This document shows, in pieces, positions 24,358 to 33,418 of a DNA stretch of 64,000 bases. The position numbers and the translations under genes are program-made. Under the pieces are notes generated by a model, which had not been told where the DNA came from, made no database searches, and saw only the letters and a list, made by a program, of their open reading frames with translations. Numbering within the stretch: the first letter of the stretch is position 1; the number at the start of each line of letters is the position of its first letter. This DNA is from Christensenellaceae bacterium. GTDB lineage: Bacteria > Bacillota > Clostridia > Christensenellales > CAG-138. Where the stretch lies: contig OY762962.1 of the NCBI GenBank assembly GCA_963667195.1, positions 2,138,591-2,202,590 of the forward strand, given 5' to 3'.

Positions 24358-24774
24358 TTGGAACACTTCGTTGAGGACATAGAGTGGGAGTTATTCGATA
24401 GCTTCTGCAAGCAAGTTATTAAAAACGCGGGTCGGAATATTCGACGTCGATACTTAAGACAGTTACTGAATGAAAGCCTTATGGGATTCCCTGAACAAGA
24501 GAACACAAATATAGGCGTTCATTATGATGCTTATCCTTCGGATGGAGATTATATCGAATTTAATGGGAATCTGTATCCAGTTAAGAAAAGCTGGCTACAA
24601 ATCATTCTACAACAACTTCCGAAGAAACAACTTGGAGTACTTATTTTAGGGTATTGGTGTGGATACACTGACGAGCAAATTGCAGTTAATTATAAAATTT
24701 CTACGCGAACAGTACAAAATCTGAGAGCTCGTGCGTTTGAAAAGATACGGAGGTATCGTCTAAGTATAAAATGA
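24358..24774 (+). CDS. Small sigma-70-like protein (region 4 HTH), mobile-element type
   Basis: The C-terminal LPKKQLGVLILGYWCGYTDEQIAVNYKISTRTVQNLRARAFEKIRRY is a sigma-70 region-4-like HTH. It lies in AT-rich island DNA and starts with TTG. Confidence 0.6.
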   Translation: MEHFVEDIEWELFDSFCKQVIKNAGRNIRRRYLRQLLNESLMGFPEQENTNIGVHYDAYPSDGDYIEFNGNLYPVKKSWLQIILQQLPKKQLGVLILGYWCGYTDEQIAVNYKISTRTVQNLRARAFEKIRRYRLSIK

Positions 24775-24828
24775 CCCCTCCGTTATCAAGATAGACACCG
24801 ATTGCCTAACGGTGAAAACGGAGGGAAT

Positions 24829-25053
24829 ATGGGGAAGGTCCCAAAGGACACGATTTTCCGAGCCATCAAAGGCGATGACACGGCAATCGAGGAGGTAATT
24901 CTGGTTTATGACAATTACATCAACAAAGTAGCTACATTTAACTTCAAGAACAAGGAGGGGCATACATATAGGATTGTCTCCGAAGACGCAAAGCAGGAAC
25001 TAATAGAAAAACTAATCAAAGCGTTGCCTAAATGGAAAGGACTTAAGAAATGA
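24829..25053 (+). CDS. Small HTH protein of the conjugative-transposon type (Tn916 Orf7/8-like)
   Basis: AIKGDDTAIEEVILVYDNYINKV resembles the sigma region-2-like helix of the small HTH proteins that accompany sigma-like genes in Firmicute ICEs. A GGAGGG RBS lies upstream. Confidence 0.45.
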   Translation: MGKVPKDTIFRAIKGDDTAIEEVILVYDNYINKVATFNFKNKEGHTYRIVSEDAKQELIEKLIKALPKWKGLKK

Positions 25054-25871
25054 TAGTACTACCAGATCTTTTTGAATTTGCTTATGTGCCCAACTGGTGT
25101 GACCATCTCAGCGCATTGGCTGAGATGGCCATGCCAGAGACATGGCATTTTTCGCATCCTTTAGTGCCGCCAAAGAACTCGGATACGCCGATACTAGAGA
25201 AACTCGTCAATTACGTTTTTAAGAAACAAGTTATCGATTTTAATAATCTTCCAGTCGGATCCGATCCGGAATTTGCGGACAGAATCTTTTTTATCAGAAA
25301 TGAAAAAGCATGTTTCAACACTGGACTCTATACAAAGAATTTTAAGAGCATCTATGGGTGTTTCACTCGTAATAAACGCAAAGATGCTATGCAAGACTGG
25401 TTCTTCCGTGGATTCTATGACGATGTTGCCCCCGATCTGAAGTATGTGCAGCCATTGCCGGATAAACCGGGTTTCTTGCTGCCGATCACGGGGATGACAT
25501 ATTTCCCTGCTTGGGACATACGCGTCAATGTGAACCACATTCTTTGTGATCCTGAAAACTTCGCACGCCTGCCGGTTGAAGTGCAGCGCGCGAAGAACTT
25601 ATCGCTTCTACTAGAAACCGCCGTCGAATTGGCTCGACGCAAAGCGTCATTTGAACCCGGCATCGTAGTGCCGCAGGGATATCAAGGCAAGGTGCAGTTT
25701 TTGCTCCCGCTTTGCTTGCGGGATATGGAGCGCACTGACCTCGCTATGACGCTCACGCCCATGGACGGCTACTATCTTGGCCATACCTGTCTGACGCTGG
25801 AGATGGCTTATTTGAACGCGCGTTTGATCGGTAGACCGATCGCTCCCTGGCTTCTGGAACTCGTGACCTGA
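25050..25871 (+). CDS. DUF3825-like hypothetical protein
   Basis: The start overlaps the previous stop (ATGA). The blocks LAEMAMPETW, PILEKLVNYVF, ACFNTGLY and WFFRGF match my memory of DUF3825 proteins. This was not verified. Confidence 0.45.
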   Translation: MIVLPDLFEFAYVPNWCDHLSALAEMAMPETWHFSHPLVPPKNSDTPILEKLVNYVFKKQVIDFNNLPVGSDPEFADRIFFIRNEKACFNTGLYTKNFKSIYGCFTRNKRKDAMQDWFFRGFYDDVAPDLKYVQPLPDKPGFLLPITGMTYFPAWDIRVNVNHILCDPENFARLPVEVQRAKNLSLLLETAVELARRKASFEPGIVVPQGYQGKVQFLLPLCLRDMERTDLAMTLTPMDGYYLGHTCLTLEMAYLNARLIGRPIAPWLLELVT

Positions 25872-25959
25872 TCTTCCGGCTGCCGCCCTCAGGGGTTAAG
25901 GATAAAGCTGATCTGCCCCCGTTTTCTGGATCAGGAGCAATGTTAGGAAATGAATCGTT

Positions 25960-26804
25960 CTAGGCAGCAATCGGAACCACGGTTTGAGGGGCGGGCGGCC
26001 GCCCGCCGAGGCTCGAATGCGGCCTGACCTGATTGTAGTAACGAACCCATCGCTGCGTCAACACTTGCGCCTCATACATGGTGTCAAACAACTCGCCATT
26101 CAAGAATTCAGCCCGCATACGAGCATTGAAACTCTCGATATAACCGTTCTCCCATGGACTGCCCGGCTCGATATAGGCTGTAATGGAACCTGCATCTCTC
26201 AGCCATTTACGAATCTGTTTAGCGGTGAATTCACTTCCGTTATCGCTTCTCATATACTCCGGAACCCCGCGGGTCAGCATGAGGTCTGATAGTAATTCAA
26301 TTACATCATTGTTCCGCCAACTTCTGCGTGGCACGCTGGCGAGGCATTCGTGTGTATGTTCATCCAGGACGTTCAGGAATCGGATCTTTCGACCATTACT
26401 GGTTCTGTCTTCTACAAAATCATAACCCCATACATGATTCTTATGCTCTGCTCTCAGACGGATGCAGCTGCCATCCGTTAGCCAGAGCCTGCGCTTTTTT
26501 GCTTGCTTTTTCGGCAGTTTCAAGCCTTCTTCCCGCCAGATTCGTTCAACGCGCTTATGGTTGATTAGAATTCCTTCGTTCCGAAGCATATAAGTAACCA
26601 TCCGATACCCGACTCGTCCGCAATTAGTAACCAATCGGATGATCGCGGCTCGGATCTCGTCTTCGTCACTGCGTTTCACAGGTTCATAACGACAACTGTT
26701 GCGGTTGATTTGCAATACCCTGCAAGCCCGTCTTTCTGCCACATGATGTTTGACCACGGCATACTTGACAGCCGCTAAGCGCTTGGCAGGGCTTAGAAGT
26801 TTTT
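25960..26804 (-). CDS. IS3-family transposase OrfB (DDE/RNase-H integrase core), expressed as an OrfAB fusion by -1 frameshift
   Basis: It carries the rve-type core (HVWGYDF..., LNVLDEHTHE, SDNGSEFTA, YIESFNARMRAEFL, RPHSSLGGRPPA). The -1 frame is open from the slippery site at 26798-26804. Confidence 0.9.
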
Positions 26805-27071
26805 TGAGTTCACATCCCTAAGAATTGAGATATCCAACGCTTGCTCGGCTACCAGCTTCTTTAAACGTGCGTTTTCTTTTTCCAGCTCCTTCATTCGTCG
26901 CGCATCACTTGTGTTCATTCCACCGTATTCTTTTCGCCAGCGATAGTATGTCTGCTCGGTGATTCCGAGCCCCCTGCAGGCTTCTGTAATCGTTTTGCCT
27001 TGATTACAATGCAGTTCTACCTCCCGCAGCTTGACAATGATCTGTTCGACCGTGAAGTTCTTTCTTGCCAT
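26793..27071 (-). CDS. IS3-family transposase OrfA (HTH)
   Basis: MARKNFTVEQIIVKLREVE...TYYRWRKEYGGM...RLKKLVAEQALD has the typical IS3/IS407 OrfA HTH followed by a leucine zipper. Confidence 0.9.
   Translation of the reverse strand: MARKNFTVEQIIVKLREVELHCNQGKTITEACRGLGITEQTYYRWRKEYGGMNTSDARRMKELEKENARLKKLVAEQALDISILRDVNSKNF
26798..26804 (-). other. Programmed -1 ribosomal frameshift heptamer (A AAA AAC)
   Basis: The minus strand reads TCA AAA AAC TTC TAA. Shifting -1 gives KKLLSPAKRLAAVKYAVVKHH..., which is continuous with OrfB. Confidence 0.7.
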
Positions 27072-27527
27072 CTTCTTTCAGCTCCTTTGTTAGTCTTTTT
27101 TCTCTTTTTCCTAACATTGTAGCTGGCCCGGTTCCGTGGGGCTAGATCATTATTTCTTTTTGTTGACCAAGTTTGGTTTCATAGCAAGAATTATTTCACT
27201 ATATCATACAATTTTTGGAATCATGCAAATGACCAATTAAGGAGCCTATTATAAATTACTCTGAGTCTTGGGCGTGAGAGCTATCATTCTGTTAAACTTT
27301 CATTTGAAAAATAATGGTTTGATTATTACACGATAATTTAATTTCGATTCGTTTTATCTGCGAGTGTTTGCTGAGAAGGAAGCGCTTACCCACGATAGAT
27401 TCTTTGATAGCAATCCAATACGAAGGGCGCATTGCTACACTTTGGGTTTTTTAAATATCGTGTTTAGTAGATAGTATTCATTTTGTAATTGCGACTTCCC
27501 ACACAAGAAGGAAATTTATTGCAGCGT

Positions 27528-28187
27528 TTAGCTGAGATTAGTGCCTTTTGTTTGTTTTAATTTGACTATTTTTTCAAGCACAATTGTGCCATTTGTTCCA
27601 TCTTCTCTATTCGTAAAATATCTTCCTTTCATATTATTGCCATTAACAATAAACGTATTGTATCCATCGTGCTTTTTTGTCTTCCAATCAACACAATATG
27701 AATCATTGCAATATGGGAACCCGAACTCAACCCCGCTTTCGCCATTTGAAAATATAAAAGCTGCGATGCTATGCGAAGTTGATCTCGGAAAGGCGCAAAT
27801 AACACTAATATGGTCCCAATCCTGTCTAATTTCCATTGAAAACTCAATTCTTGTTGGAACACCATCTGTTAAGTAAGAAGAAATTAACTCACCTTTCCAT
27901 GTTCCATTCAGGTTTGGGATACTATGAAATTTAGAAATTATGGGTATCGTCCACAACACTTTGCGAAACAGCAAGTAAAGTACTCCAAATACGCCCAACA
28001 AGGTTACTGAAGATACTGATAATCCAAAGAAATCCAATGTTGAGATAATTGATTTAAGACAAGATGGAATATTGATCAAGATAGTACTAAGTAAATAATT
28101 AATCAGCTTTGCTGCAAAAAACGAAATGAAAAGCATTATAAGCAAAGCAGTTTTTCGAACATTTGAATCGATTGAATAAAATTTCAT
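27528..28187 (-). CDS. cap15: CBASS effector, Cap15-like (two N-terminal TM helices plus a beta-strand-rich C-terminal domain; S-2TMbeta type)
   Basis: The two hydrophobic helices are TALLIMLFISFFAAKLINYLL and VSSVTLLGVFGVLYLLF. They are followed by LNGTWKGEL and a ~120 aa beta-rich domain. It is the last gene of the CD-NTase/Cap2/Cap3 operon, 5 nt after the cap3 stop. Confidence 0.75.
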   Translation of the reverse strand: MKFYSIDSNVRKTALLIMLFISFFAAKLINYLLSTILINIPSCLKSIISTLDFFGLSVSSVTLLGVFGVLYLLFRKVLWTIPIISKFHSIPNLNGTWKGELISSYLTDGVPTRIEFSMEIRQDWDHISVICAFPRSTSHSIAAFIFSNGESGVEFGFPYCNDSYCVDWKTKKHDGYNTFIVNGNNMKGRYFTNREDGTNGTIVLEKIVKLKQTKGTNLS

Positions 28188-28192
28188 TGCGA

Positions 28193-28675
28193 TTAAACCT
28201 CGATAATCTGATAGTCAATAATAATTCCTCTGCTGCTGGAGGAGGAAACCCCAATAAACAATTTTCCAGTGCTACCAAGAATGAACATGAAATAGTGTGT
28301 GAAGACGCAGCTTTTTTCTTTTGCGATGGTGTTCAATAGTATTTGATCCGTCATTGAAGGCATTGGGTTGGCGAATGGATGAGTGTGCCATTCCCCAAGA
28401 TAATTCACAATGCCTTTTGAATTTCTCCATCTTTGATTAATTACTTGTTGAGCAGCTTTCTTGCTCCTTAGAAATCCGAATCGCGTTCTTTTATCAAACT
28501 GATTTGGACGTGTTAGTTCAGAAATGGTATAGTCTTCGGAACCAACTAACTTTTTACCCAACAGTATTCCGCCTGCCTCAAAATCAAAGGCACCTTGGGA
28601 ATAACACTTAATTACTTCAATTATCGAAGGTTGGATATGAACCGCAATGTTATATTTGAAATGAATGTCAATCAT
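28193..28675 (-). CDS. cap3: CBASS Cap3, JAB/JAMM-family metallo-isopeptidase
   Basis: It has EAGGILLG (upstream Glu) and an exact JAMM motif HTHPFANPMPSMTD (HxHx7SxxD). It overlaps cap2 by 8 nt (ATGATTGA). Confidence 0.9.
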   Translation of the reverse strand: MIDIHFKYNIAVHIQPSIIEVIKCYSQGAFDFEAGGILLGKKLVGSEDYTISELTRPNQFDKRTRFGFLRSKKAAQQVINQRWRNSKGIVNYLGEWHTHPFANPMPSMTDQILLNTIAKEKSCVFTHYFMFILGSTGKLFIGVSSSSSRGIIIDYQIIEV

Positions 28676-30326
28676 CGCTAATTATCTCACAATACAGCTT
28701 ACTCCATTGCAGGTCTTTATATTGATCATTTATTTCAAGATTAAATTTTTCAGCAATCCCATAATTTCCCAACCAGAAGAATCGATAATTCGAATTAGTC
28801 ATGAATAAATTATTTGTGAAAAGATAATCAAGAAAAGCAACTACAAACATTTCTACATGCAGAGAAGAATACTGAATATATGTAGCTTGACATCCAGAGT
28901 CTCTCTTTTGATAATTGCCTGCATGCTGGACTACCGTATGCTTATAATTGAAGTGACCATCATATAACTCGGAGAATATATCTTGTGGTTTTTGCAGAAC
29001 AAGAACATGTGCTGCGATCGCGTAAGGTTCAAGCCACATGATGATCACAGGCTTAGTTATCGTGCGCTCACAAAGACAAGTTATTATATGTGCGTCAATA
29101 GAGATGTCAGCAGTGGTTATAAAAATCGCATCGCAGTTATTAAGTAAATCCACAGATGATCGTAATACTGTGTGTATGTTTGTATTGGTGCAATCACAAG
29201 AAATATTCGGGTTTTTTAAACTGAGATAAAAATCTGTCGCTAGTGTTTTCAAACGATCTACGTGGAAGTACCCGCATAAATGTCTTGCTATATTATCTAC
29301 AGACAAAGAATCATAATCAAAAAGTGAAAACTGATTCATTCCACAATCTGCTAGTAAATTAGCTAAATGACTACCTAAAGAACCACATCCGACGATTGCT
29401 ACTTTACTTAATGGGAATAGTTTGCCGATTCCTCCGCGCGTGAATAGACGATTTTGCGAGCAATCGCGAACCTTTACTCGTTCGACTAATTTATCACCCT
29501 CCGAACCCATGAGAACTAGCGAAACTGGAGTGTTTCCGCTTTCAAATGAAGGGTGATCACCCAAAGCAGAATGTGTAAACCCGCAAGGGATCCATTTGTG
29601 CTCCACTTCGAGAGTGAAGATTACCAGAAAAGATTGCTTTGAATTTTTCCGTAAGAAAAAACAATACTGATCATATGCAGATGAGTGGGTTTTTATAATT
29701 TCTAGCCAATTTCTTTGCGTCAATGCAGATATGGTGTCATTAAACGAAACAATTGGAACAAGAATTGCGGTAAAAATGTCTTTATGATCCTCGTCATATT
29801 TTAGGGCATTTTTTGCAATCTTAATTACTTTATCAGATGAATTTGCTGCTATAATTGATTTCTCGTTTGTAATGCAAAAAAGAACTTGAAAAAAAGACAA
29901 ATCATCAACAAACAAATCGACTTCAATTTTGTCTTCAATATTTCCTTCCCAATACGCTTTAAATTCGTCATTAAAAGCTTCCTTGTCTTTTTCTTGGTTT
30001 GTATCACAAATCATAGAAATTGCTTTCTCAATTGTGTCGATAATAATCATTTCTGGCCTATAAAAATTAGGAAATACTATATCAGAACCGTAAGTGCAAA
30101 GAAAGCCGCCAATAAAAACATGTGGGCGGCCCGACAAAATTCTTTTCGCAGCGTCTCCTAATTGTATTTTTGGCAAAACATATGGGAAATCATCATCAAT
30201 GGAGCAAACAAAAGCATACTCCTGTTCGCCAGCAAATGCCGATATTTCAAAACAGGAGTTTTGAAAAGTAATCTTTATTCCTTTTCCGGTAAAATATTCA
30301 ATTACTGATTCAACCAGATCTTCCAT
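28668..30326 (-). CDS. cap2: CBASS Cap2, E2-like/E1-like (ThiF) fusion protein
   Basis: The N-terminal ~150 aa is E2-like, with HVFIGGFLC. The C-terminal part is a ThiF/E1 Rossmann domain, VAIVGCGSLGSHLANLLADCGMNQFSLFDYDSLSVDNIARH. It is 552 aa and overlaps the cdn stop by 17 nt. Confidence 0.9.
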   Translation of the reverse strand: MEDLVESVIEYFTGKGIKITFQNSCFEISAFAGEQEYAFVCSIDDDFPYVLPKIQLGDAAKRILSGRPHVFIGGFLCTYGSDIVFPNFYRPEMIIIDTIEKAISMICDTNQEKDKEAFNDEFKAYWEGNIEDKIEVDLFVDDLSFFQVLFCITNEKSIIAANSSDKVIKIAKNALKYDEDHKDIFTAILVPIVSFNDTISALTQRNWLEIIKTHSSAYDQYCFFLRKNSKQSFLVIFTLEVEHKWIPCGFTHSALGDHPSFESGNTPVSLVLMGSEGDKLVERVKVRDCSQNRLFTRGGIGKLFPLSKVAIVGCGSLGSHLANLLADCGMNQFSLFDYDSLSVDNIARHLCGYFHVDRLKTLATDFYLSLKNPNISCDCTNTNIHTVLRSSVDLLNNCDAIFITTADISIDAHIITCLCERTITKPVIIMWLEPYAIAAHVLVLQKPQDIFSELYDGHFNYKHTVVQHAGNYQKRDSGCQATYIQYSSLHVEMFVVAFLDYLFTNNLFMTNSNYRFFWLGNYGIAEKFNLEINDQYKDLQWSKLYCEIISDD

Positions 30327-31272
30327 CGCTTCCTAATACACCGGGTGCAGAGGTTCTTTGATAAACACTTGCACTATTCGTCTCTTCGGTTTTACTGCTT
30401 TTAGTAATTGGAAATCTACTCCCAAAACATGAGTTCAATTTCTCTGTTGCAACAGCTATATCGCTCGCATCGATAGCAGAGCTTAAGGCGTCACGTAGAG
30501 AAGCAAGTTTACTTATTATAGATTCTTTTTTTGTTTTACTATGGCCTTCAAATAAATCTTCATATGGAAAAACTGGTTTATAGCATGAGTAGTTTAACTG
30601 AAGTTTGTCAAGCATCAAGGACAAAGTGTCCCGCATAGCTTTATCATCTCGATTAGAATACGGTGAAAAGTTTTGTGCTACGAGGATTGTTATTTCTACG
30701 CCTTTTAAGTCGACGTCTTTGAAATCTTTCCACGCTTTTAGATATCGAACAACGCGGCGTAGTTGCTCTCCCTTTATTGCAAGAAGATTTATGAACCAAT
30801 CTTTAAAAGCTTTCGGATCACTCTGAAGCCAACCCTTGGATTTGTGGGCTAAATATGCAATATTATTGCTAACAATATATATTGGAAGATCAACATGATA
30901 ACCGGCCGAATAGTAAACTCGAATACATGTGCTTTTATCCTTTGAGTCTTCTTTTGTTTGATCATCCACCGCATTGAGCACCCATCTATGGACGGTATCT
31001 ACGGAATCCCATTCATCAGTAGCAGTATTTTCATAGCCCTGCAAGTAAATACCATCATCAATATCATAATCATCATCTAGGGGATTAACAATTGTTTTCA
31101 TTGCGAAAGAGCCTTGCCAGCAGAACTTTGGACAATACATGTCATTTTCGTTAAAATAGTCGCGTATTATTTTGCGAAGGGCATCGCGACTTGTTTGTAA
31201 AGAATTGGTTTTTGCGGACGTCAAAGTAATTGAAGAATTATAACTTTGAAAAGCATCATGGGAATTTGCCAT
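30310..31272 (-). CDS. cdn: cGAS/DncV-like nucleotidyltransferase (CD-NTase, SMODS family)
   Basis: It has the pol-beta NTase signature QGSFAMKT...DYDIDDG (GS...DxD) and a third acidic residue in GYHVDLPIY. Downstream blocks are WLQSDPKAFKDWF and RYLKAWK. The C-terminal tail ends ...GSDGRSG. A GGAGGG RBS lies 9 nt upstream. Confidence 0.9.
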   Translation of the reverse strand: MANSHDAFQSYNSSITLTSAKTNSLQTSRDALRKIIRDYFNENDMYCPKFCWQGSFAMKTIVNPLDDDYDIDDGIYLQGYENTATDEWDSVDTVHRWVLNAVDDQTKEDSKDKSTCIRVYYSAGYHVDLPIYIVSNNIAYLAHKSKGWLQSDPKAFKDWFINLLAIKGEQLRRVVRYLKAWKDFKDVDLKGVEITILVAQNFSPYSNRDDKAMRDTLSLMLDKLQLNYSCYKPVFPYEDLFEGHSKTKKESIISKLASLRDALSSAIDASDIAVATEKLNSCFGSRFPITKSSKTEETNSASVYQRTSAPGVLGSDGRSG

Positions 31273-31311
31273 TCGTCAGATCCCTCCAAGTATTTCTTAC
31301 CATTATAGCAT

Positions 31312-31320
31312 GTACGTCTT
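31312..31320 (-). promoter_or_regulatory. Candidate extended -10 promoter element (TGcTATAAT) for the CBASS operon
   Basis: The minus strand reads ...ACATGCTATAATGG.... The element is ~40 nt upstream of the cdn ATG. The -35 is poor, so this is only a candidate. Confidence 0.35.
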
Positions 31321-31375
31321 ATTTTTCATATACAACAAATGATTTCATTAGTAGTTTGCGATATAGATATTTATA

Positions 31376-31548
31376 TGATCGGCCCCCCGATTCTTAGGCA
31401 AGGAGCATTATTAGTCGGCTAGGTGCTGAGGTAGCAACAAGGATAATGGTTTGAGGGCGGGCGGCTACCCATCAAGGCCCGAATGTGGCTTGATCTGATT
31501 GTAGTAGCGAGCCCATCGCTGCGCTAATACTTGCGCTTCAAACACAAG
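31376..31548 (-). mobile_element. Truncated copy of a related IS3-family element (terminal IR plus the last ~35 codons of orfB)
   Basis: It starts TGATCGGCCCCCCGATTCT..., compared with TGATCTGCCCCCGTTTTCT... at 25919. It then aligns by eye with 25976-26080 (GGTTTGAGGG.GGGCGGC...CTGATTGTAGTA.CGA.CCCATCGCTGCG). Similarity stops near 31548. Confidence 0.7.
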
Positions 31549-31795
31549 ACGGTTATTACTCTCAAATATTCAAAAATCGAAAGATTTGCTACTAATTACA
31601 AATGATAGTTTTGTGGATTCGAAGATAACTCTGGCAATTTAAAAGCTACCTGCAATAAAGTTTGATCTATAATGATAGAACTTTTGACGATCTCGAATGA
31701 TCATTTACTATCGATCATCCCAACAAACATCAAATAAACATCAGGTAGTAGGTTTTGACCCCATTCTGTGCCTAAGAATGATTCTCAAGATATGC

Positions 31796-31822
31796 AAAAA
31801 CCGCCCGAATTGGGCGGTTTTT
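31796..31822 (-). terminator. Rho-independent terminator downstream of tRNA-fMet
   Basis: The sequence is AAAAACCGCCC-GAATT-GGGCGGTTTTT: a GC-rich stem followed by a T run on the minus strand. Confidence 0.7.
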
Positions 31823-31825
31823 AAT

Positions 31826-31901
<76 letters not shown>

Positions 31902-32299
31902 ACATTCGTCTTTCGACGTGCAAAAAGTAATATATCACACGTGATACGGAAAGTCAACCCCGCAAATGCATATTTCGACTTATACTGCATTCGACGTGTC
32001 ATGATCACAACCCATGTGAAGAACGCTGGGGACAAATTTGTATCTTAACCGCATCACCATATTTAAGTATTGCGAAAAGAAACGATCTGCGCAATAATAT
32101 AAGAAGCGTTTCTCTGTATTCCTGCGCACGGGGCATACTCCACTTCTTATTTCCCGTGACGCTAAATAAAGGAGGGATACCCATCCGCAAGGCTTGCGGT
32201 GCGGCAGTGTGGAGACCTGCTGTAATGCGACCGTCACATCATCGGGCGGTTGCGAGTTGGGCGATGAGCGAACGCTGCGCCTGATGAAGCCGAAACACT

Positions 32300-33418
<1,119 letters not shown>

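Follow-up and report, generated by a model that had tools for sequence, protein, structure and literature searches.

Several anti-phage systems of the CBASS type (cyclic-oligonucleotide-based anti-phage signalling system) have been described that resemble the locus analysed here in part of their components. In the capV-dncV-cap2-cap3 system of Vibrio cholerae and Escherichia coli, a cGAS/DncV-like nucleotidyltransferase (CD-NTase) of the A/B super-group, with a C-terminal tail ending in Gly for conjugation by Cap2, is encoded together with a Cap2 fusion, a Cap3 JAB protein and a membrane-targeting effector. The same features are found at positions 27528-31272 of a stretch of 64,000 nucleotides (nt) from a Christensenellaceae bacterium (contig OY762962.1, positions 2,138,591 to 2,202,590), the whole of which is referred to below as the window, and this locus can with high confidence be read as a type II CBASS operon of the order cdn-cap2-cap3-cap15 that is intact and was acquired horizontally; the proposed mechanism is Cap2/Cap3-regulated signalling of the cyclic GMP-AMP (cGAMP) type to the effector Cap15. 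A messenger of this type has been shown for DncV and is predicted here, whereas the effectors differ: the window encodes, as its last gene, a Cap15 with two transmembrane (TM) segments, while the V. cholerae and E. coli effector is the patatin phospholipase CapV, encoded first. The CD-NTase of the window also lacks the insertions of DncV (320 versus ~430 amino acids, aa), to which it is ~20% identical. The closest solved CD-NTase is CdnB of Bacteroides fragilis (BfCdnB, CdnB04, structure 7LJO), which has the same compact architecture and an acidic lid-3 residue, although the two enzymes are 33-40% identical and the lid-3 residue is Glu here and Asp there; in Bacteroides relatives among the contigs and loci compared, which carry labels of the form L0xx, cap2 and cap3 are present and there is no Cap15-like effector (L075, L076). 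On the effector side, the barrel of Yersinia aleksiciae Cap15 (YaCap15, 7N34/7N35) is alike at a sequence identity of ~20-23%, but the Cap15 proteins of Y. aleksiciae and Staphylococcus schleiferi (CdnE03) work with clade-E cyclases, unlike the one described here; Ssc-CBASS, in which Cap15 is cGAMP-activated, is a two-gene type I system. The CdnD02-Cap2-Cap3-Cap4 system of Enterobacter cloacae has the domain order of Cap2, a nearly equal spacing between Rossmann motif and E1 Cys, a JAMM Cap3 and the regulatory logic of conjugation and deconjugation in common with this locus, but it relies on a clade-D cyclase which makes a trinucleotide and on a Cap4 nuclease effector, and its Cap2 is detectably similar to that of the window in the adenylation domain alone.

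The four genes are co-oriented on the minus strand and overlap or abut, in the order cdn (CD-NTase, 30310-31272, 320 aa), cap2 (E2-E1 fusion, 28668-30326, 552 aa), cap3 (JAB/JAMM isopeptidase, 28193-28675, 160 aa) and cap15 (two-TM effector, 27528-28187, 219 aa), and every open reading frame (ORF) is intact and full length. A preliminary description, made from the sequence itself, had reported four minus-strand ORFs with a 17 nt overlap at the cdn/cap2 junction (ATGGAAGATCTGGTTGA), an 8 nt overlap at the cap2/cap3 junction (ATGATTGA) and a 5-nt gap from cap3 to cap15; all of this was recovered, as were the motifs it had quoted from the CD-NTase, Cap2 and Cap3, each of which is present in the ORF translations. 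Its further claim, that gene content and order are those of type II CBASS in the scheme of Millman et al. 2020, is borne out for each component by Pfam, PADLOC, NCBIfam and Protein Data Bank (PDB) searches and by structure prediction. All four proteins match PADLOC CBASS hidden Markov models end to end, the Pfam domains SMODS, Prok-E2_B plus ThiF, Prok-JAB and Cap15_CD_rec are found, and AlphaFold models searched with Foldseek lead from the cyclase to BfCdnB and from the effector barrel to YaCap15; the family matches of all four proteins are far beyond chance. Upstream of cdn lies a promoter-like 5' leader (31273-31432, minus strand), recognised by consensus scan and homology, in which pattern matching to consensus points to a putative extended -10 element, TGCTATAAT, with its hexamer at 31302-31307, a weak -35 element (ATGAAA) and a ribosome-binding site (RBS) GGAGGG 8 nt before the ATG. 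These 160 nt are kept with the cassette, the homology to L087 and L088 running through them. In both intergenic flanks, no CBASS regulators (CapW, CapH/CapP) or small ORFs were found.

The active site of the CD-NTase is composed of G54-S55, D70, D72 and D128 (DYDIDD at 68, HVDLP at 126), and these residues (GS, DxD and D) are shared without exception by 30 aligned CD-NTase homologues of 50-88% identity. The protein matches Pfam DncV-like_NTFase (3.5e-24), SMODS (6.4e-13) and DncV_C (1.9e-10), the PADLOC Cyclase model from end to end (1.4e-108) and, in two stretches, the NCBIfam equivalog for CBASS cGAMP synthases, NF041078 (235 bits, cut-off 150), while a PDB sequence search returned 7LJO (BfCdnB) as the best match (1.4e-41), followed by the 8YS* entries and then by DncV. 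In the AlphaFold2 (AF2) model, a polymerase-beta (pol-beta) type NTase core and a helical domain are confidently folded (predicted local distance difference test, pLDDT, 87.7; predicted template modelling score, pTM, 0.82), so that both the SMODS match and the pol-beta fold anticipated for this protein are present. Foldseek placed BfCdnB 7LJO at the top (TM-score 0.83/0.91, root-mean-square deviation, rmsd, 2.2 Å), followed by ten CdnB entries of Deinococcus wulumuqiensis (DwCdnB), then by DncV, and only after these by CdnC, CdnD and CdnG. Judged by sequence and predicted fold, the enzyme thus appears nearest, among solved structures, to BfCdnB and DwCdnB, both of clade B. The preliminary description had regarded both the clade and the messenger as unreadable from sequence, a view that proved too strict on either count, as the clade is narrowed to the surroundings of BfCdnB and DwCdnB and the messenger by a score above the NF041078 cut-off. 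The C-terminal tail, which ends ...APGVLGSDGRSG, is predicted to be disordered over residues 295-320 (AF2 pLDDT <50), and its end, APGVLxxDGRS with a terminal G/A, is kept in the 30-homologue alignment. It has been reported that Cap2 conjugation needs a conserved Gly/Ala C-terminus on the CD-NTase (PMC10419184) and that such a tail is a hallmark of CD-NTases which are adenylated and conjugated by Cap2 (bioRxiv 10.1101/2022.03.31.486616); the disordered tail would be as expected for a Cap2 substrate.

Cap2 matches Pfam Prok-E2_B (1.9e-8) and ThiF (2.8e-15) as well as the PADLOC E1-E2 model (1e-128, residues 1-545), and it carries the Rossmann motif GCGSLGS at 313 (G313-x-G-x-x-G318). Across 62 Cap2 sequences from related loci the GxGSxGS and RH motifs are conserved, C77 is kept in all but one (61/62) and C479 in every one (62/62). 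When the family profile was compared with the PDB, E. cloacae Cap2 was found (7TO3, 1.4e-20), with the adenylation domain only being aligned. The E1 cysteine of that protein is C548 (bioRxiv 10.1101/2022.03.31.486616), at 163 aa from G385, and the distance from the first Rossmann glycine to C479 is 166 aa in the window; because of their invariance and of this spacing from GxGxxG, C479 is a candidate for the E1 crossover-loop Cys and C77 for the E2 Cys. Cap3 possesses the complete set of JAMM residues, E33, H97, H99, S107 and D110, in EAGG at 33 and in HTHPFANPMPSMTD at 97, an exact HxHx7SxxD, and it matches Pfam Prok-JAB above the cut-off (1.8e-9), the PADLOC JAB model (2.1e-39) and, in the PDB, the JAB peptidase 9ILD (7.6e-13).

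The effector belongs to the Cap15 family, matching Pfam Cap15_CD_rec (PF18153) over the full length of the model (4.6e-18, 66 bits versus a cut-off of 31), the PADLOC 2TM effector model (4.2e-52) and YaCap15 7N34 in the PDB (8.9e-6). Its hydropathy profile has two hydrophobic segments, at ~11-38 and 51-84, which are matched by helices 8-39 and 58-76 of the AF2 model (pLDDT 85.6) ahead of a C-terminal beta-barrel, in agreement with the two TM helices and beta-rich domain initially proposed for this protein. The alignment behind the model was shallow (5 matches from the protein search, 16 with the profile) and the model still confident, and the barrel superposes on 7N34 YaCap15 with a TMt of 0.84 and an rmsd of 2.4 Å. 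Cap15 has been described as the commonest TM effector (PMC10419184). The idea that the way in which the effector kills could not be read from the sequence had to be given up, since the published mode of the Cap15 family is membrane disruption by oligomerisation.

By analogy with characterised relatives, we infer the trigger, the conjugation target, the nucleotide product and the defence phenotype of the system as follows. The operon would be transcribed from its own promoter, and the ThiF-type site of Cap2 would adenylate the C-terminal Gly320 of the CD-NTase, which would be handed on via thioesters on C479 (E1) and C77 (E2) and then conjugated to a target, an event that would prime the cyclase; the Cap3 JAMM peptidase would take the conjugate off and in this manner limit priming. 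Upon phage infection the clade-B-like CD-NTase would make a cyclic dinucleotide (CDN), most likely 3'3'-cGAMP, which would bind the cytoplasmic beta-barrel of Cap15, and Cap15 would then oligomerise in the membrane and disrupt it, so that the cell would be killed or arrested while the phage cycle is still incomplete (abortive infection). With regard to the messenger, it has been demonstrated that BfCdnB (CdnB04) prefers GTP as donor via its lid-3 Asp238 and that its product is mainly 3'3'-cGAMP (PMC10442399); the position aligned to Asp238 is also acidic here, namely E238 in PYEDLF. In addition, the Cap15 of Ssc-CBASS is activated by cGAMP (PMC10686824). Because of the product of BfCdnB, the acidic lid-3 position and this activation of Cap15, 3'3'-cGAMP is the best guess for the present CD-NTase and a reasonably probable one.

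Cyclases of this kind are widespread: at E<=1e-10 the protein collection contains more than 600 homologues, of which the closest shares 97% identity. Gene architectures were counted in the best 80 of 417 stretches that encode a relative of the cyclase, taken from contigs of one genome per species. The complete arrangement cdn-cap2-cap3-cap15 occurs in the same order in 27 of these 80 species-representative loci, all of them from Bacillota (Clostridia, Lachnospiraceae, Oscillospiraceae, Dialister) apart from one metagenome-assembled genome of the Eggerthellaceae (L017), and cdn-cap2-cap3 is combined with a different effector in a further 35. The remaining 18 have no detectable cap2 or cap3, some of them on truncated contigs; five of the 18 retain a Cap15-like gene, and a scan of the neighbours in five of the 18 showed, among others, one locus with a Cap15-like protein and one with a patatin. 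Since it is present in 27 of the 80 loci, cdn-cap2-cap3-cap15 counts as a frequent arrangement of type II CBASS that has been catalogued before, and the window adds an uncharacterised member to it. Relative to two independent cassettes that are >90% identical (L087, L088), the ratio of nonsynonymous to synonymous substitution rates (dN/dS) is 0.09-0.23 for every gene, and purifying selection acts on all four of them. In the phage collection a single CD-NTase match was obtained, a weak one of 29% identity, which gives no evidence of the cassette being phage-borne. The value of the locus lies mostly in annotation, as one further uncharacterised instance of a large and well-understood defence family; however, clade-B, cGAMP-type cyclases that are paired with Cap15 and regulated by Cap2/Cap3 are abundant in gut Clostridia, and no biochemical characterisation of such a pair was found in the literature, so that this cassette or one of its relatives could reasonably be chosen to determine the product and the ligand of Cap15.

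The operon stands on foreign DNA, as the preliminary description had concluded from its AT-richness, and this reading is well supported by composition, by flanking sequences of the IS3 family of insertion sequences (IS) and by the different cargo found at the same tRNA-Met site in sister strains. The GC content is 0.362 for 27149-31700 versus 0.545 in the rest of the window, and at third codon positions (GC3) it is 0.30-0.37 in the four CBASS genes versus 0.80 in the adjacent malK-like gene. The tRNA-Met gene (CAT; 31826-31901, minus strand; ARAGORN and Rfam) is followed, ~115-150 nt past its 3' end, by the beginning of a variable island at ~31675-31710: contigs of sister strains, the neighbouring contigs having been reached via 90% cluster members, are 96% identical at the nt level from there rightwards and carry different cargo leftwards. 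The same tRNA-Met is found in L081, L082 and L084, and the cargo at the site comprises a complete QatABCD together with a HEPN_Apea protein in L082, and an integrase with prophage genes in L081 and L083. The minimal cassette common to other contigs extends over 27560-31432. At >90% nt identity it adjoins AbiEi/AbiEii in L087 (373-1819), and its neighbours in L088 (4868-13055) are genes for a type IIG restriction-methyltransferase, an HKD-Snf2 helicase and a resolvase, company that is typical of defence islands. The operon is thus a defence cassette lodged in a hotspot that is linked to a tRNA gene and was later reshaped by IS3 activity, and the exchange of whole defence systems (CBASS, QatABCD) or prophage at this tRNA-Met in Christensenella-like genomes makes the site useful for defence-island mining. 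A separate observation concerns L088 (4527-4660) and L089 (4474-4607), where a degenerate second copy of window positions 31710-31845 (76% identity), consisting of the last 19 nt of the tRNA-Met, its terminator and ~115-135 nt of downstream sequence, lies just beyond cap15; the two copies form a direct repeat that brackets the CBASS cassette like att sites, and there is no integrase within the cassette. In the window, no further copy of the 3' end of the tRNA-Met was found when up to 3 mismatches were allowed.

The traces of IS3 activity lie on both sides of the operon. An intact element of 1240 bp (25909-27148, minus strand; Pfam HTH_Tnp_1, rve and rve_3) contains orfA (26793-27071) and orfB (25960-26757) between terminal inverted repeats TGATCT..., and its flanking triplets, AGC and TTA, show no target-site duplication. 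It is 89% identical to positions 6556-7794 of L087, where the copy is turned the other way with respect to this cassette. The synteny between the window and L085 (83-85% nt identity) ends at 25908, exactly where the IS3 begins, as would result from a deletion or rearrangement mediated by the IS. On the other side, the cassette is bounded 160 nt upstream of cdn by a remnant of 116 nt (31429-31544, minus strand) that derives from the 3' end of a related transposase gene of the IS3 family and points the same way as the intact element. Compared with 25962-26078 it is 82% identical over 90 nt and 72% over 29 nt, and it translates to MFEAQVLAQRWARYYNQIKPHSGLDG, which was compared with the C-terminus of OrfB; the remnant is present in L088-L090 and absent in L087.

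Several observations weigh against the interpretation of the locus as a functional type II CBASS operon that signals through 3'3'-cGAMP to Cap15. With respect to the messenger, the product is deduced from enzymes which are just 33-40% identical, the clade-B subclade CdnB02 of Bacillus and Clostridium makes 2'3'-cGAMP (bioRxiv 10.1101/2023.07.24.550367), and for YaCap15, the Cap15 that was crystallised, sensing of uracil-containing dinucleotides has been reported (PMC10419184). Moreover, DwCdnB was crystallised with ATP, GTP, UTP and dATP, hinting at relaxed specificity within the clade, and no description of what this enzyme (8YS*) makes was found in the literature. It is therefore possible, if clearly less probable than 3'3'-cGAMP, that the same architecture works with another messenger, such as 2'3'-cGAMP, c-di-AMP or a uracil-containing CDN. 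This possibility is countered by the score above the NCBIfam cGAMP-synthase equivalog cut-off and by BfCdnB, the nearest structure, which makes mainly 3'3'-cGAMP and whose lid-3 position is still acidic here. CdnB02 systems, furthermore, are of type I with Cap14 (bioRxiv 10.1101/2023.07.24.550367) and not of type II with Cap15, and no Cap14/SAVED-2TM partner occurs in the sampled type I relatives, whose partners are Cap15-like or patatin. Homologues from Bacillus mycoides and a Deinococcus plasmid had been considered as CdnB02-Cap14 references and were rejected, being type II with SAVED effectors. That the clade-B-like cyclase of this gut commensal makes, like CdnB02, specifically 2'3'-cGAMP, an agonist of mammalian STING, appears unlikely; if it did, 2'3'-cGAMP would gain a new receptor in the Cap15 encoded here, and lysis of the bacterium through CBASS could set free, in the gut, an immune signal that acts on the host. 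As clade B includes producers of 2'3'-cGAMP, the product of its gut-commensal members is worth measuring.

The other unfavourable points concern the protein assignments and the state of the locus, and they leave signalling by 3'3'-cGAMP to Cap15 in an intact type II CBASS as the preferred reading. The roles given to the Cap2 cysteines are deduced from conservation and spacing; Cap3 scores under the equivalog cut-off of NCBIfam NF050170 (2.2e-19, 70 bits, cut-off 200); and the effector stays under the cut-off of Pfam Cap15_TM (19.8 versus 28.2 bits). Cap2 and Cap3 also match weakly the 6A-MBL cap2_3 model and ThiF/MoeB, as might be expected if the four genes formed a non-defence operon for ubiquitin-like conjugation (E1/E2/JAB, Iyer-Aravind 6A/6B) in which the NTase and the membrane protein had housekeeping or signalling functions. 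Such an operon is very improbable, however, given that these matches are far under the cut-off (50-56 bits versus 320) and the CBASS-specific models fit end to end, that the NTase and the membrane protein are a genuine CD-NTase and a Cap15 receptor, respectively, and that the neighbours in other contigs are defence genes. As for the locus, cap15 is followed after 380 nt by the intact IS3, which lacks a target-site duplication, no intrinsic terminator is predicted downstream of cap15, and the 3' breakpoint of the cassette falls inside the last ~11 cap15 codons (27528-27560). The last ~11 residues of the product are therefore a strain-specific tail, and beyond the conserved end of the barrel, GTNGTIxLxK, the Cap15 proteins differ, with total lengths of 219 aa in the window, 206 aa in L087 and 216 aa in L088. 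Together with the IS3 remnant 160 nt upstream, the absence from the window of the att-like repeat of L088 and L089, and an extremely foreign codon usage (GC3 0.30 versus 0.80), the nearby IS3 and the lacking terminator could be taken to mean that a rearrangement left the operon stranded between IS3 sequences and that this host carries it along as a passenger, silent or decaying. Decay is hard to reconcile with four full-length ORFs in which every catalytic residue is present, with the dN/dS of 0.09-0.23 and with a 160-nt upstream region, including extended -10 and strong RBS, that is conserved along with the cassette, and a passenger of this kind is accordingly regarded as improbable.

Beyond the island, the operon is followed on the right by the tRNA-Met, by a malK-I RNA (32120-32305, plus strand) and by a gene for a MalK-like ATPase. 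The malK-I RNA is a full-length match to Rfam RF03069 (126 bits versus a gathering score of 60) and lies directly upstream of the MalK/UgpC-like ATP-binding cassette (ABC) ATPase gene (32300-33418), the start of which it slightly overlaps. One member of the cluster to which this MalK/UgpC protein belongs at >=90% identity is annotated as Christensenella sp. Leftwards, the synteny with L085 spans sugar-metabolism genes and a trio encoding sigma70_r4, HTH_16 and DUF3825 proteins (window 24358-25871), the last of which matches phrog_11623 (2e-81). In L085 (11804-21083) the trio runs on into genes for an SNF2 helicase, a D5-type primase, DUF1492 and HNH proteins; as it continues there while the synteny of the window stops at 25908, the window holds a truncated phage-like element, cut after DUF3825, of which the trio is the left end. 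Positions 1-23637 are devoted to core carbohydrate and central metabolism, including GHL6, alpha-amylase, DUF2961, DegT aminotransferase, thiolase, CoA transferase and hexokinase, GFO/IDH/MocA oxidoreductases, xylose-isomerase-like TIM barrels, an MFS sugar transporter and an AraC regulator. The GC content of this region is 48-56%, somewhat under the 55-62% found to the right of the island.

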